A stretch of DNA of 53,885 nucleotides from a virus (taxonomy: Duplodnaviria; Heunggongvirae; Uroviricota; Caudoviricetes). Where the stretch lies: positions 64,001 through 117,885 of the IMG/VR virus record IMGVR_UViG_2718218201_000002; one strand, 5' to 3'. A program made the translations under genes and the position numbers. Below the pieces are notes generated by a model. That model was not told the DNA's origin, made no database searches, and worked only from the letters and a program-made list of their open reading frames with translations. This document shows, piece by piece, positions 947-27,067 of the stretch. Each line of letters opens with the position of its first letter. Position 1 is the first letter of the stretch.

Positions 947-1439
947 CAATTATAATGATTACTTTTACACCTCTAGAGTATAAATGGCATCTAATTGTAA
1001 AAGTGATATGTAGTTGTATTATTATACTGATAGTAACCTTTGCTCCATATTCACCAACCAATTGTAACACAATCAATTGACCGAGTCACTAAAAAAATAA
1101 TGCATTATTATACGATAAGTATGTATAAATATGTATATATGAATTTGCTCATATAAGCCCGTATATGCGCCCTATTGCATGATAAAGTAATTAGGATATG
1201 TAATATCTGAACGCTTAAATATGTGTTAAACATTGAATATAAAGCTGTATGTTGATTTGACAAATAGCGTGAAATGTGGTAAAGTTTATGACCAAAATTA
1301 TTGTAATATGTAATGCCAATACAGAAGAGTGAACAAAAGCATAACCTAAAGAATGAATATAAGTTATGCCATTTAATCACATTCTGTTTTATAATGAATA
1401 GTAGCAAATATAAATATATTAATTGTTGCTGAACGAAAA

Positions 1440-3250
1440 TAATAGTATTATTAACGTATATCTGTTGGATATATATTTAAGTTTATATTAATAATATTAA
1501 TTACTTAATGTAATAGTTATATTAATATCCAATGATTAGGATTCAATGATATAAAATGAATATTGATTAAATAAATTATAGCATGTGTTGTGCTTTGTGT
1601 TAGATACGATACATATTAAATATAAATGATGTAATGTTGTATGTAAGAATGTTGATATTAGATGTGTTGGCACATTGATTGATAAGTTAATTGAGTATGC
1701 ATGTGTATTGAATGATGATTAGTAATAGATATAAGGTGATATGTAATGATGAATGATAGATAGTAAATAAATTAATTGATGGTGATGTGATGATGATTAG
1801 TAGGTAAATTGTTAAGTGAATAATATTAAATTGTAGTTTGTAATGTTTATTATTATGGAATGTATAATTTGTGATTATAATATTTTTATTATTATGTTTT
1901 AATTTGTTATTATCGATATTGTGATATGAATGTGTAGATGCTGAGTAGTGTGTGATTGTTAGTGTGATTGTTGAGTTGCTGGAGTGGGAAAGTGTGATGT
2001 GTTAGGTGTGGTGTGTGGTGGAGATGTGAAGATGTGAGAGGTGGAATGGAATGTGTGCGTGATTATGTGGTTGGGTGACTGGGTGATAATGTGTGTGTGA
2101 GGTGGAGAGATAGGTGTATTTGTTTGTTGGGTGCGAACACATTTCTCGCTGTTATCGGTACTGAAAAATTTTTAAAAAATTTGATTAAAATTTAAAACTT
2201 AATTTAATTCAGTGATTTACCTTGTGTTAAATTATTTTCGTTCGTGCTGGAGGCTATCCTTTCACTTGCCTTTCTACTTTCTTTTCGGTTCGTTAAAAGT
2301 TCCGGCAATCTCAAAATTTGGGGGATATTTTAGGGCTGGTCATATAACGTTTATTATCTGACCGCCTTTTTTGCTCGGCTTTTTATGCGGGGGGGTGGTT
2401 TAAGATTTCAGCTGACTTGATATGATTTTACATCGGCGTACTGTCCAAAAATCACCTCACCATTGACTAAATTACATATCAAATTTTTTTCATCTCACCA
2501 CTCAACTCACATTTTTCTGCCATATTTTCGTCACAATTTCCCAACACATACTCTTACTCTCTCCACCCATTCCCCACCTTATTTTCTTTCTCGAACCTAT
2601 CTCTCACAATTACATACTCTCTCTTACTATTCATCTCACTCTCCTTTCCTCTACCCACAGCATTTTTACCTTCCTGTATACAACTCACTAAATCATATGT
2701 TAATAAACGAAATTTTATCTTTATTTTCAGTTGTTTTACTTAACATCAAAACTAAATATCCTACCATTTTTAACTTTAACCAGATAAGTCATGTGAGATA
2801 TATTTTCTATATGCTTGATTCGATTAAATATCAACTCTAAACTTTTACTCGACTAACTTTTTTTATTTTTCAATCTTCAATTTTAAATTCCAATCAACCC
2901 TTTATTTTGCATTTGACCATTAAGTTGTTCTATAATCTTTTATCACGTTTTTCCTTCTTGCTTGTAACCACTATTTTTGCCATCTCAATTTCCTGCAATG
3001 TAAGCTATAATTTACTTATAATTAATTTGTTGAAAACACTGGCTTGTATTGTCTTGATTCAATTTTAAATCAAATTTTTTCTTGAAACATTTTTACAATA
3101 AACCTAATACTCTTCTACCTTCATTTACTTTTTAGTCATCAGTTAAGAGTTTGGACATTTTTAAAACTATTTCAGCTTCTCAATTTTTCCCATTTTTCAC
3201 TATTTTTCTTTAAAAACCAATTAAATCTCCATAATTAACTCTAAAAACAA
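1440..3250. other. Non-coding region with mirror-image strand skew (C-poor left arm, G-poor right arm)
   Basis: 6 C in 1681-2132; 7 G in 2461-2700 (hand counts). No credible ORF. Confidence 0.85.
2337..2364. other. 28-bp dif/res-like inverted repeat (11-6-11), candidate tyrosine recombinase site
   Basis: TGGTCATATAA-CGTTTA-TTATCTGACCG; arms match 9/11; ATAA-N6-TTAT core as in dif sites. Confidence 0.45.
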
Positions 3251-3251
3251 A

Positions 3252-3283
3252 TAAAAAAGAGACCGAAATTAATCAGTCTCTTT
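3252..3283 (-). terminator. Rho-independent terminator ending the replication block
   Basis: AAAGAGAC/GTCTCTTT stem followed by a U-tract on the minus strand, just after ORF 3292-3648. Confidence 0.8.
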
Positions 3284-3291
3284 AATCAATA

Positions 3292-3648
3292 TTACGCTTT
3301 TATATTACGTAATCTCTTATTCATTATTCTCTTTAGCAAATCAACTAAATCATCTTTCAAGAAATCTTTACGGATTGGATACCCTTTATTCATTTCTTCA
3401 AGGTAACTGTTTATGTATTGGTGACTTAATAATGTCTTAATTATTCTAAGAAATCTTACAGAATCATCTTGTTGTTCACACAAATAGTATTGAAATTCTA
3501 ATTCTAAACTTTCTTCACGATTAATTACATTCTTTAACTCAACGCTTAATATTCTTTCAGTATCATTTTTAGTTACTGTCAAACCTATCAATGAATTCAA
3601 AGTTGCCATTACATCTTTAAACTCATTAATCATCGCATGTTGCTCCAA
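3292..3648 (-). CDS. Hypothetical protein
   Basis: 118 aa ORF overlapping the upstream ORF; followed by a terminator. Confidence 0.75.
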   Translation of the reverse strand: MEQHAMINEFKDVMATLNSLIGLTVTKNDTERILSVELKNVINREESLELEFQYYLCEQQDDSVRFLRIIKTLLSHQYINSYLEEMNKGYPIRKDFLKDDLVDLLKRIMNKRLRNIKA

Positions 3649-6392: not shown

Positions 6393-8665
6393 TTATTTCA
6401 AAAATTCACTCATAAAACATTTTCTGCTTTTACCTTTGTCCGTCTTAATTGCTTGTACAATTGCTCCTGATTCAGCAAACAATAAGCATTTGTCAATTGT
6501 TCTTGTTAAAGCTGTATATAAGAATTGTCTACTTAACAATGCAAATTCGTTAAACGTCACAATGACTAGCAATGTTTTAAAACCTGACCCTTGAGAACGA
6601 TGCACGCTAATAGCGTAACCTAAATCTAATACACCGATTTCATTCTCGTTTTCATTCTTAGCATAGAACACTGGTTCATCGATTCCTTCAAACTTAATCA
6701 ACATACCCACGCCTTCTACACATTCTAAAATCGTACCAAAAGTGCCGTTAAAGACAGCTACAGAACTATGTTCAGCTTCTTCCCTGTCAATAAACTTATT
6801 ACTATATAATACAAAATTAGCCTGACTCATAATTATTGCACTGTAGTTATTTCCTTGTTGAATGATTCTATCACCTTTTCTAAATGTATGCTTTACACCT
6901 TTGATTTCTTCTTTTCCACTCGATGCTGGGTTAAAGATTTCTTGTAAATGCTTGTTCAAATTTAGAACTGAATAGTCACCTTTCTCTTTCAAACCAACAA
7001 TTACTTGAAAGTCTTCATTTCTCATTTCTGGATTATCCGCATAACGTTGAGCTGTTTGAAGAACGTCGTTTAAAATTAATGACTTATCTCGGTAGTAATT
7101 CTCATAGAAATCACTATTTACTCCAGAAACCTTTCTACCATTTTCGTTATATTTAATAATTTGTTTTCCATCACGAACTAAATTAGCAGCACTTAAAGTG
7201 CCTGAGTCCTGCGCTTGTCTATGGACTTCTTTTAATGTTACGTGAGCGAACTCAGTAGAACCTAATAAATAATCAAACACTGCACCATGCCCAATGGCTG
7301 GTAATTGCCCACTGTCGCCAACAATAATGAATGGAGAGCCTGTGGGGATTGCGCTGATTAAATCTAAGAATAATTTGTTATTGACCATAGATGCCTCATC
7401 TAAAATATACACAGATGATGGTAATGGATTAAATTCATTGTGAAAGAAGCTACCCATTTTAGGTTCAAACTTTAACAATCTATGAATTGTACTAGCGTTT
7501 AATCCGTTCATAGAAAGTACATTAGCCGCTTTACCTGATAAACTACATGCAGCGTGGTTGTTTTCGATACTTTCAACAGCGGCTCTTAATAAACTTGTTT
7601 TTCCCGAACCCGCTTTACCGTCTAGAACAAAAATCCCATTTGTTATAGCTTTCTCAATTCCTTCACGTTGTTCTTTATTGAACTTAAAACCTTGCTCGTG
7701 CTCTAACTTTTCTACAATCGTTTCATCAATATTACTAGGGTTAAAACCATCTCGTAATCTTCTTAAGTGACTAACAATTTGCTTTTCTTCATTTCTGTAT
7801 GTATGTAAACTAATAAATCCTTCGTTATAGTAAATAGCACTGTGGTTGATAATGTCCTCAAATACTTTATCATCAACTTCATCAATATCTAAAATATCAC
7901 ATAAGTCTTTCTCAAATTTATCAATTGGAATCTTGGTATCTCCATAATTAATAATGTGTTCAATCACATACAAAGCACCTGCAACAATTCGACGTTTATC
8001 TTTAGGAGATACACCTTGTTTTAAAGCATATTTGTCGATGGTTTTAAAACCAAAACCTGAGACTCAGTTAATTTGTAAACGTCGTTTTTAACAATTTGTA
8101 CAACTTTCTCTGGACTACCGAAATGTTCAGATAGTTTGATAACACTTTTAATGCCGGCACCTAAAGGAGAAAGTGCTACAATCGCTTTGCTATACTCATT
8201 GTAGTTCAATAGTTTTGCGATTATTTTTGACGCTATCGTTTCTTGAACACCACGAACTAAAGTTAAGTCAATTTTCTTATTAATAATATCCTCAATGATA
8301 TTTTCGTTTGAAAAGGTTGACAAAATATCTTTAGCTTGTTTCTCCGTTAAAATTTGATACAAAAATTCTTCTTGAGACTTTCTATCTTTCAGCCCGTCGG
8401 ACTTTACTTCAACAAAATTATATACATCAACGTTTCTTCTTTCGTCAAAACCTTCAACAAATTTTACCTTGTATGAATTTCCTTCAATTAACGCTGGTGT
8501 GTTTCCAACAATTGTAAAATTCTTATATGTAGTATGTAATTTCACTTGCGGATTAACTTCACCAGTAAACTTAAAACCATATGCACCATACATACTCCCC
8601 TCATTGTAAAACAACTCCTTAGTTACTGTTAATTCTTCTTCAAACTCTCTAAAAATTTTTTTCAT
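6393..8665 (-). CDS. recD2: RecD2-like SF1B helicase, split by a 1-nt frameshift near 8063
   Basis: Walker A GKAGSGKT, DEASM, GDSGQL, YAISVHRSQGS. The N-terminal half continues as (V)SGFGFKTIDKYA in the other frame. ATG at 8665 has SD GAGGA. Confidence 0.88.
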
Positions 8666-8708
8666 AGTAATATTCCTCGTTTCATTTTTATTTGCTTTAC
8701 AGAAACAA

Positions 8709-8737
8709 ATTATAACACCGAAGATATATATTGACAA
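8709..8737 (-). promoter_or_regulatory. Leftward sigma-A promoter for the recD2/replication operon
   Basis: TTGTCA-N17-TATAAT with extended -10 TGtTATAAT. Confidence 0.7.
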
Positions 8738-10500: not shown

Positions 10501-10836
10501 ATGGGAGTACGCTTATCAAAAAATTTAGTTATTAAGGAATTACAAGAACAATGTGCAGACTTAGGTGTAAAACTTAGTCTAGAAGAAACACGTAAAGTTA
10601 TTACGGCTTTTGAACATACAATTGAGGAAGCTATTTTAGCAGCAGACTCAAAAGAGTATGATTCTTTTGGTTTTTCATTTGGTCAATTCAAAGTTATTGA
10701 TGTACCACAACGTTCAGGACACTCTAGTTTATTTGGTAAAGACTGGGTAACTGGAGCGCACAAGCGAGTACATTTACAATTCTCAGCACCGCTTAAACGC
10801 CGCTTAAAAGAAGAAACTTTAAAACCAGTTGAATAA
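10501..10836 (+). CDS. HU/IHF-like histone-like DNA-binding protein (SPbeta YonN-like position)
   Basis: FGQFKVIDVPQRSG...AHKRVHLQFSAPLKRRLK matches the HU beta-arm pattern; SD AGGAGA. Confidence 0.75.
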   Translation: MGVRLSKNLVIKELQEQCADLGVKLSLEETRKVITAFEHTIEEAILAADSKEYDSFGFSFGQFKVIDVPQRSGHSSLFGKDWVTGAHKRVHLQFSAPLKRRLKEETLKPVE

Positions 10837-26041: not shown

Positions 26042-27067
26042 GTGACAATAAATAAAAACATGTTACGTCAACGTGCTCAAAAGTTACCTGAGGTCACTGA
26101 TGAAATGTGGCAAAAAGTAAATCCCCTAACCCGAGAATTAATTGATGAGTTTTTAAATTCGATTGATGCTTCAAAACAAACTAAAAAACAATATCGTTCA
26201 GCTTTAAAGCAATTCGCATATTTTGTTTATGAAAGTTTGAATGACAAGCCATTATATAAGATTAAAAAACGTGATGGACTAAGGTTTATAAATTACTTAC
26301 GTGAGAATCGTAAAATGTCCTCTTCCGGAATTAATCTTAAAAAATCTGCTATATCTTCGTTTTGCTCTTGGATTGAAATGTATTTAACTGACGATGATGA
26401 ATATGTTAACGAGCACGGAGAACCCCTATTTCAAACCTTTAGAAATTTTATGAAAGGTTTGCCTCCAGTGGTGAAAAATCAAACGTATCAAAAAATAAAA
26501 ATTACACATGAAGAATATTTAAAGATGATGGAAGCTCTTGAAAGTGATGAAAACTATTTAGGTATGGCATGGTTAGCTGTGGCTTTTAATGCTGGGGCAA
26601 GACGTGCTGAAATCATTCAACTTAAATCTGAGATTGTCAACTACCCTTTCAATGAAGAAGGTAGTTACATATTAACGCACAATATCAGAGGTAAAGGCAG
26701 AGGAGAAGATGGAAAAATGCTTCAGTACATGATAAATGATGAAGCGTTGAAGTACATCAAAATATGGCTAGATAAACGTGGTTTTGAACATGAATATATT
26801 TTCGCTTTGAAACGTGGCGATAATATTAGACAAATGAGCGTTAGTTGGGCTGATTATTTTTGCGAAAGTGTGTTGTCTCCAATATTAGGGCGACGCATTA
26901 ATCCACACATATTTAAAGCAAGCTGTATTACTTATCTCTTAGAAGTTAAAGGTGTGGATATTAAACATGTATCAAAACATGTTGCACATCACGAATCAGT
27001 AAATACAACTCAAATTTATGACCTAAGGGATTTTGACGACGAACGTAATAATATTTTTAACAAGTGA
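26042..27067 (+). CDS. Tyrosine recombinase (XerC/D-like) within the tail module (SPbeta YomM-like position)
   Basis: Catalytic motifs GARRAEI, GKG, HIFK (HxxK instead of HxxR), AHHES, TTQIY. Confidence 0.88.
   Translation: MTINKNMLRQRAQKLPEVTDEMWQKVNPLTRELIDEFLNSIDASKQTKKQYRSALKQFAYFVYESLNDKPLYKIKKRDGLRFINYLRENRKMSSSGINLKKSAISSFCSWIEMYLTDDDEYVNEHGEPLFQTFRNFMKGLPPVVKNQTYQKIKITHEEYLKMMEALESDENYLGMAWLAVAFNAGARRAEIIQLKSEIVNYPFNEEGSYILTHNIRGKGRGEDGKMLQYMINDEALKYIKIWLDKRGFEHEYIFALKRGDNIRQMSVSWADYFCESVLSPILGRRINPHIFKASCITYLLEVKGVDIKHVSKHVAHHESVNTTQIYDLRDFDDERNNIFNK

Follow-up and report, generated by a model that had tools for sequence, protein, structure and literature searches.

The stretch analysed here, called the window throughout, is the last 53.9 kb (53,885 nucleotides) of a 117,885-base provirus record of IMG/VR, IMGVR_UViG_2718218201_000002; positions refer to the window unless the record is named. 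We found in it a 28-base inverted repeat (2337-2364) that resembles the dif sites of Xer recombinases and lies in a non-coding hub, a conserved core of about 330 bp between a C-poor and a G-poor arm, inside a gene-free stretch of 1.9 kb. The large terminase of this phage matches those of NC_029119 and PhiSepi-HH3, two SPbeta-like phages of Staphylococcus, at 75% identity, and YonF of Bacillus subtilis SPbeta at 43%. Comparison across relatives shows that the repeat is built, and evolves, like the core site of a tyrosine recombinase. On our best reading its cognate protein comes not from the late operon of the phage, but from the yopO-yopP-yopQ-yopR module, with the Xer-like YopP family as the best candidate.

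The dif-like repeat and its hub

The late structural operon starts at about 8.8 kb on the + strand, the genes to its left are encoded on the minus strand, and the genome-wide skew switches near 8.7 kb, where transcription diverges. The original prediction had placed the repeat at a skew inversion. This is true of the local C-poor (1621-2130) and G-poor (2451-2700) blocks on its two sides, but the genome-wide switch lies elsewhere. The following features frame the hub:

1621..2130, + strand: C-poor, G/T-rich left arm of the hub (8 C in 510 nucleotides), of which the composition is kept in relatives and the sequence is not
2334..2374, + strand: extended hairpin, GGC-T-GGTCA-T-ATAA ... TTAT-C-TGACC-GCC, then T6, terminator-like on the + strand only
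2337..2364, no strand: dif-like inverted repeat of 11-6-11 layout, TGGTCATATAA / CGTTTA / TTATCTGACCG
2451..2700, + strand: G-poor, C/A/T-rich right arm of the hub (7 G in 250 nucleotides)
3256..3283, minus strand: strong terminator that closes the upstream early operon and forms the right edge of the 1.9-kb non-coding region

Position and arm match of the repeat were as predicted: the reverse complement of the right arm is CGGTCAGATAA, and the arms agree at 9/11 positions and differ at arm positions 1 and 7. The statistics of this sequence alone are only suggestive. The window holds ten ATAA-N6-TTAT cores, and inverted repeats of 11-6-11 layout with at least 9/11 matches are not enriched (11 against 16 +/- 3.9 in first-order Markov simulations); core and 9/11 repeat coincide at one position, where 0.10 +/- 0.33 are expected per window. 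That the repeat is nevertheless more than chance is shown by its conservation in relatives, as described below. It is present in a single copy in the 117,885-base record, in which no second paired copy of either half-site was found.

Two other identities of the repeat were considered and rejected. It is not an attP or integration junction, because its position, 66 kb into the 118-kb provirus, is an internal one. Nor is it a member of a palindrome family of this phage, ATAAAA-N6-TTTTAT, since the arms differ. That family has 11 exact copies between record positions 6505 and 101296, mostly in the early region (including window 24978 and 37296), and for the degenerate form RTVAAA-N6-TTTBAY 14 hits were counted where Markov simulations predict 2.9 +/- 1.4; beyond the 6-nucleotide arms it shows no conservation.

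Conservation in staphylococcal and Mammaliicoccus relatives

A blastn search of 1500-3200 against phage records gave no match, and relatives were therefore sought through proteins and short patterns; scans of genome contigs turned up none. The architecture of the window was recovered in five lineages, which comprise the S. epidermidis group (NC_029119, PhiSepi-HH3 and three IMG/VR contigs), the close relative L010, the more separate L021/G002 and three Mammaliicoccus phages. In every staphylococcal and Mammaliicoccus lineage found, ATAAC-N4-ATTAT is invariant and occupies the same position in the hub, while the spacer varies by lineage (CGTTTA, CAATGA, CTATTA/CCGTTA, CCGATA). On the 3' side of the repeat, all of these lineages continue with T5(-6), N3-4, G6-7 and (A/G)GATT.

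Pairing between the two arms is maintained. Among six distinct staphylococcal sequences, 83% of the cells of the arm alignment are paired compared to 73% in shuffles, and none of 500 shuffles reached 83%. Three arm pairs of this set are altered on both sides, and intermediate states occur (G-C, G.A, T-A and C-G, C.A, A-T).

Conservation of the hub itself is of two kinds. A comparison of the window with L010 gives 90-96% identity for the core blocks but only 44-68% for the skewed arms, which yet retain their composition. Selection seems to act on strand composition of the arms itself. A replication-terminus dif with arms resembling KOPS (FtsK-orienting polar sequences) was rejected, as the skew is local and the arms are conserved in composition, not in sequence.

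The equivalent hub of Bacillus SPbeta-like phages

ATAAC-N4-ATTAT is absent from SPbeta, but a scan for dif-like repeats identified TGCGTGTATAA-GGAACA-TTATACGTGCA (9/11, single copy) at SPbeta 64601, in the gap between yonP and yonR. When this gap is flipped so that the late genes are aligned, its features follow the order of the window: first an A/T tract, then the repeat, then a G5 run at a distance of 17 nucleotides, and last a skewed arm, which spans 64200-64540 in SPbeta and contains 95 G versus 23 C. The A/T tract, at 64690-64740, lies on the same side of the repeat as in the window, and the polarity of the hub relative to the late operon is likewise the same in the Bacillus phages. The SPbeta packaging site, pac, was assigned by restriction mapping to the region between or around yonR and yonP, and packaged SPbeta DNA has terminal redundancy (PMC8270828). 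Moreover, two independently deposited GenBank records, those of BUCT083 and BUCT082, begin within 150 nucleotides of the repeat, about 70 nucleotides from it on one side and about 150 on the other, as might be seen if a physical DNA end or a coverage step (pac) lay there.

Twelve Bacillus SPbeta-like phages bear an equivalent repeat, in well-conserved flanks and with a constant ATAA-N6-TTAT core. Their arms fall into two types: type I, T(G/A)CGTGTATAA-GGAACA-TTATACGTG(C/T)A, and type II, (T/A)CCC(T/C)ATATAA-(GATACG or TATACC)-TTATGTAGGG(T/A). One arm pair of the type I phages passes through G-C, A.C and A-T. Across all relatives, staphylococcal, Mammaliicoccus and Bacillus, the 11-6-11 layout and the ATAA/TTAT core are invariant, and seven different spacers occur. 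The dif-like geometry proposed originally gained support, with arm symmetry kept by two-sided changes and a spacer that is free to vary.

In Bacillus phages, arm type follows the yopO-R module and not YomM

The original prediction paired the repeat with a Xer-like enzyme encoded at 26042-27067 and suggested conservation and co-variation as a check. Conservation was found. Co-variation, examined in the 12 Bacillus phages, pointed to other genes. The enzyme belongs to the family of SPbeta YomM, as detailed below, and YomM alleles show no association with arm type (Fisher p 0.58): SPbeta-type alleles (98-100% identical) and Goe-type alleles (65%) are each found in phages of both types. YomM is 100% identical between SPbeta (type I) and phi3T (type II), and yet their arms are unrelated; conversely, SPbeta shares its arms with Goe11, Goe12 and L8, whose YomM is only 65% identical.

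YopP, in contrast, was concordant with arm type in all 12 phages: its sequences share 99-100% identity among phages of one type, and 31-36% when the types differ (Fisher p 0.0013, a value that ignores relatedness). The same pattern holds for yopO, yopQ and yopR in the seven genomes that were analysed in full. Across both arm types, the terminase genes yonF and yonG, as well as yonO, show 97-100% identity, except in BUCT082, where the copies are divergent or missing. Flanking genes are 98-100% identical between phi3T and SPbeta, and the repeat and the module are therefore two separate swapped patches. Type II phages with 99-100% identical YopP have two different spacers, GATACG and TATACC, as expected of a protein that reads the arms only. 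An all-gene association scan was confounded by accessory genes common to close relatives, and only families present in all genomes were informative. Where it is testable, the specificity partner of the repeat is, by this comparison of genomes, the yopO-R lysogeny module and not the YomM-type enzyme.

The two tyrosine recombinases

The phage encodes two tyrosine recombinases that are candidates for an action on the repeat:

26042..27067, + strand: YomM-family tyrosine recombinase of the late operon, with the boxes GARRAE, NPHIFKAS (HxxK) and AHHES..TTQIY
record 55693-56790 (L034:1194-2291), minus strand: YopP orthologue, outside the window and 7.2 kb to the left of its first base

The open reading frame (ORF) 26042-27067 is indeed Xer-like, as the original prediction had it. 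It contains the Pfam domains Phage_integrase and N-terminal SAM-like (E values 5e-14 and 6e-9) and is 59% identical to SPbeta YomM and 62-70% identical to staphylococcal and Mammaliicoccus homologues. It also immediately precedes the large tail genes and the tape-measure gene, the next gene encoding a protein of 1368 amino acids; domains, position and identity all place it in the YomM family. The first catalytic Arg, both His and the Tyr are present in the ORF, and the second catalytic Arg is replaced by Lys (NPHIFKAS) in four of four aligned members.

The YopP orthologue shares 30% identity over 268 amino acids with SPbeta YopP (E value 1e-22). It has Phage_integrase and SAM-like domains, the first catalytic Arg, His and Tyr, and an HxxK box, and in relatives it is kept 6-7 kb from the hub. 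PDB sequence matches of the YopP-like protein are XerA (4a8e) and XerH (5jjv). An assignment of this second recombinase as an orthologue of MrpR was rejected, since it matches YopP, not YopR. The yopO-R module is the lysogeny-control operon of the phage and encodes YopO, with an Xre-type helix-turn-helix, the Xer-like YopP, the ParB-like YopQ, and YopR, which is the recombinase-fold repressor MrpR.

In both recombinases of the window phage, Lys substitutes for the second catalytic Arg (NPHIFKAS and FHSFKKG), and the same is true of SPbeta YomM and YopP. YopP of the phi3T type has a canonical HSLR.

Further features of the hub and the genome

The hub contains several further elements, most of which recur in relatives:

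2148..2156, + strand: CTGTTA(T) motif, GCTGTTATC, kept in the core of relatives and similar to the CTGTTATATAG repeats that adjoin the yopP-like gene
2161..2198, no strand: A/T tract, CTGAAAAATTTTTAAAAAATTTGATTAAAATTTAAAAC, kept in relatives
2258..2288, + strand: iteron-like direct repeats that recur about every 11 nucleotides, CCTTTCACTTG CCTTTCTACTTT CTTTTCGG
2377..2408, + strand: conserved block, GGCTTTTTA-TGC-GGGGGGG-TGGTTTAAGATTT, with the G run at 2389-2395
2440..2489, + strand: most conserved core block (96% identity to L010), which includes ACTGTCCAAAAATCAC and ATCAAATTTTTT

In the Mammaliicoccus phages, three copies of ATTACCAGTA stand at the place of the iteron-like repeats. In the Mammaliicoccus, L021 and S. 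epidermidis lineages (L009 4828-4937; L025 2289-2390; L026 1734-1754; L002 7241-7260), the C-less left arm carries tandem DnaA boxes at its inner end (TTATCCACA, in a single orientation). The Mammaliicoccus phages have 3-4 perfect boxes and 3 with one mismatch within about 110 bp, L021/G002 has one perfect box and neighbours, and the S. epidermidis lineage has two boxes with one mismatch. The hub of the window itself holds no DnaA box with one mismatch or fewer, and a description of the left arm as a DnaA-box array was rejected, being true of some lineages only. The DnaA boxes of several lineages, together with the A/T tract and the iteron-like repeats, make the hub a candidate not only for a pac region but also for an origin.

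ATCAAATTTTTT forms a perfect inverted pair that brackets the core (2174-2185 and 2478-2489, 292 nucleotides apart), with a third copy at 3069-3080, and each bracketing copy begins an outward G-poor stretch. It resembles the integration host factor (IHF)-type consensus WATCAANNNNTTR, and an HU-like protein is encoded at 10501-10836. In the 580-bp gap beside the yopP-like gene, CTGTTATATAG repeats lie in forward orientation at record 56420, 56869 and 56934 and inverted at 57105; CTGTTATA recurs at record 61475, 61981 and 62493. Motifs of the CTGTTATATAG/GCTGTTATC type may be a staphylococcal analogue of SPBRE, the MrpR operator of SPbeta.

The RecD2-like helicase is encoded by two ORFs of the window that lie 47 nucleotides apart on the minus strand (6393-7973 and 8021-8737). 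It is a single gene of about 2.29 kb in NC_029119 and the Mammaliicoccus phages and is interrupted by an inserted gene in PhiSepi-HH3, and the window copy may be a split or frameshifted gene. The two-block layout of the genome had also suggested a crAss-like phage, which was rejected because the terminase and recombinase matches are to SPbeta-like phages.

Discussion

We consider binding by a YopP-type protein, with lox-like recombination at the repeat, to be the likeliest mechanism, an assessment which we make tentatively. The repeat would serve as a single-copy core site, in which the invariant inner ATAA/TTAT is combined with a freely varying 6-bp spacer and with outer arms that set the specificity. 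Two YopP-type protomers would occupy the two arms and, where the site is present twice, strand exchange would take place across the spacer. A second copy could be provided by the terminal redundancy of a freshly injected headful genome, or by a replicative multimer, and the outcome would be a circularised or resolved genome, as with Cre at loxP near P1 pac. Site anatomy, conservation and co-variation with the module can be read directly from the genomes; which protein of the module binds, and whether strands are exchanged, we infer from these patterns.

Several observations weigh against this view. The 12 Bacillus phages are phylogenetically non-independent, and the module is inherited as a block, so that YopO, YopQ or MrpR could bind instead of YopP. 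Co-variation was measured in the Bacillus relatives only; in the staphylococcal lineages all proteins diverge in step, and the test cannot discriminate there. The hub of the window and that of the Bacillus phages are linked by architecture, with no alignable sequence beyond the core. In the staphylococcal set, arm position 7 is never paired with position 5. Finally, YopP of the SPbeta type and of the staphylococcal phages has Lys for the second catalytic Arg (HSFK), which may weaken catalysis.

The last point would be readily accommodated if the repeat were only a regulatory operator, at which MrpR/YopR, YopO, YopQ or a catalytically idle YopP controls promoters, packaging or replication in the hub, and strands are not exchanged. 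We regard this as possible, if somewhat improbable. The co-variation with the yopO-R module fits it equally well, MrpR itself has a tyrosine-recombinase fold and yet acts as a repressor (PMC10516654), and one MrpR peak from chromatin affinity purification sequencing (ChAP-seq) was assigned to the yonP promoter, in the same gap as the repeat (PMC10516654). The known MrpR operator is, however, a different sequence. From six promoters named in PMC10516654 we derived SPBRE as ACAAATACAAA(A/T)AATATGTATATA, of which SPbeta has about 12 copies and phi3T, for the SPbeta-type motif, none; the nearest copy to the SPbeta repeat, at 64141, is 460 nucleotides away. The repeat was therefore rejected as an SPBRE, being single-copy and different in sequence, and two annotated SPbeta 'palindromes' (77856 and 82394) are neither SPBRE nor related to it. 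Operators usually recur, whereas the repeat is unique in each genome, and a spacer that varies freely under an identical protein fits a recombination site. It is unlikely, in our view, that the repeat is a structural part of pac or of a lytic replication origin, be it a terminase cleavage or entry site or a signal that an initiator or primase recognises as a hairpin or cruciform. The mapping of SPbeta pac to the yonP-yonR gap (PMC8270828), the BUCT082 and BUCT083 records that open beside the repeat, the DnaA boxes of several lineages, and the A/T tract and iteron-like repeats of the hub all speak for such a role. Yet yonF and yonG, like yonO, are near-identical across both arm types (BUCT082 excepted), so the terminase does not read the arms; no initiator gene that co-varies with the arms was identified, and the hub of the window is devoid of DnaA boxes at up to one mismatch.

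A still less probable alternative is that the hairpin acts as an intrinsic terminator, or as another RNA hairpin, of a + strand transcript that crosses the hub. In the window its folding energy as RNA is -14.1 kcal/mol (z -2.7, equalled by 0 of 200 shuffles), T6 follows directly, and the U-G pair at arm position 1/11 works on the + strand only; a T5-6 run after the hairpin is also common to all staphylococcal and Mammaliicoccus lineages. The S. epidermidis lineage, however, has only a weak hairpin (-8.3 kcal/mol, z -0.8), and that of Mammaliicoccus does not fold better than shuffles. None of three Bacillus variants (SPbeta, BUCT083, BUCT082) has a T run after the repeat in the + orientation of the window, and a T run on the opposite strand occurs in the phi3T/BUCT083 type only. 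A terminator would also not need the conserved primary sequence ATAAC-N4-ATTAT, no convincing + strand promoter lies upstream, and Rfam gave no match for 1300-3400 at a permissive threshold. A terminator role is thus possible in the window, but not conserved. Least of all do we expect the repeat to be the substrate of the YomM-type recombinase, the role in dimer or concatemer resolution or DNA maturation that was originally proposed and that we now consider very improbable. The enzyme has Arg I, both His and the Tyr and is conserved in every phage with the repeat. Its alleles, however, show no association with arm type, and identical YomM proteins accompany unrelated arms just as divergent ones accompany the same arms; YomM could therefore read at most the ATAA/TTAT core.

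Returning to recombination by YopP, we put forward, with still greater reserve, a wider proposal: the SPbeta-like phages of Bacillus, Staphylococcus and Mammaliicoccus might possess a lox-like system that has so far gone unrecognised. Its parts would be a single dif-like site in a pac/ori hub, the Xer-like YopP from the arbitrium-linked lysogeny operon and, perhaps in an accessory role, the ParB-like YopQ. Its specificity types would be exchangeable, and its function would be to circularise or resolve a genome of 120-135 kb. If real, such a system would connect the lysis-lysogeny switch with DNA topology. In SPbeta, which serves as a model of temperate phages, replication, packaging and circularisation are largely uncharacterised (PMC8270828). 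A conserved dif-like site that swaps together with the yopO-R module provides a concrete DNA target in B. subtilis for YopP, YopQ and YomM, and YomM is removed as the obvious candidate partner. The same non-coding hub is now also marked in staphylococcal prophages, with sharply C-less and G-less arms.

Among known systems, Cre/loxP offers a close parallel to the lox-like scheme that we favour. In phage P1, loxP is located near pac, packaging is headful and yields terminal redundancy, and Cre circularises the injected DNA. Common to both systems are a single-copy inverted-repeat site with an asymmetric spacer, its place near pac in a phage with headful packaging and terminal redundancy (for pac and redundancy in SPbeta, PMC8270828), and a phage-encoded homomeric tyrosine recombinase, which in the present case is a candidate. 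They differ in their dimensions, with imperfect (9/11) arms of 11 bp and a 6-bp spacer here, and 13 and 8 bp in loxP. The candidate recombinase is moreover encoded 7-14 kb away from the site, inside the lysogeny operon, and has an HxxK box in this lineage.

With the Xer/dif systems, including XerH/difH and XerS/difSL, which use a single recombinase, the repeat shares the 11-6-11 layout and the ATAA-N6-TTAT core, and the candidate partner has a Xer-type N-terminal SAM-like domain. In contrast to dif, the element is phage-borne and not situated at a replication terminus, and nothing ties the skewed arms to FtsK or SpoIIIE. The dif site of the Firmicute B. subtilis is ACTTCCTAGAA-TATATA-TTATGTAAACT; the outer arms of the repeat would seem to be unlike this sequence.

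Two further comparisons concern SPbeta itself. SPBRE and MrpR likewise bring together a recombinase-fold protein of the yopM-R operon and intergenic phage DNA, and operator and protein alleles co-vary; but SPBRE is about 20 bp long, overlaps promoters and exists in about 12 copies, whereas the repeat has 28 bp, another sequence and a single copy. ORF 26042-27067, with its position before the tape-measure gene and its HxxK box, belongs to one family with SPbeta YomM and the late recombinases of Tsamsa-, 949- and E3-like phages. The alleles of that family do not track the repeat.

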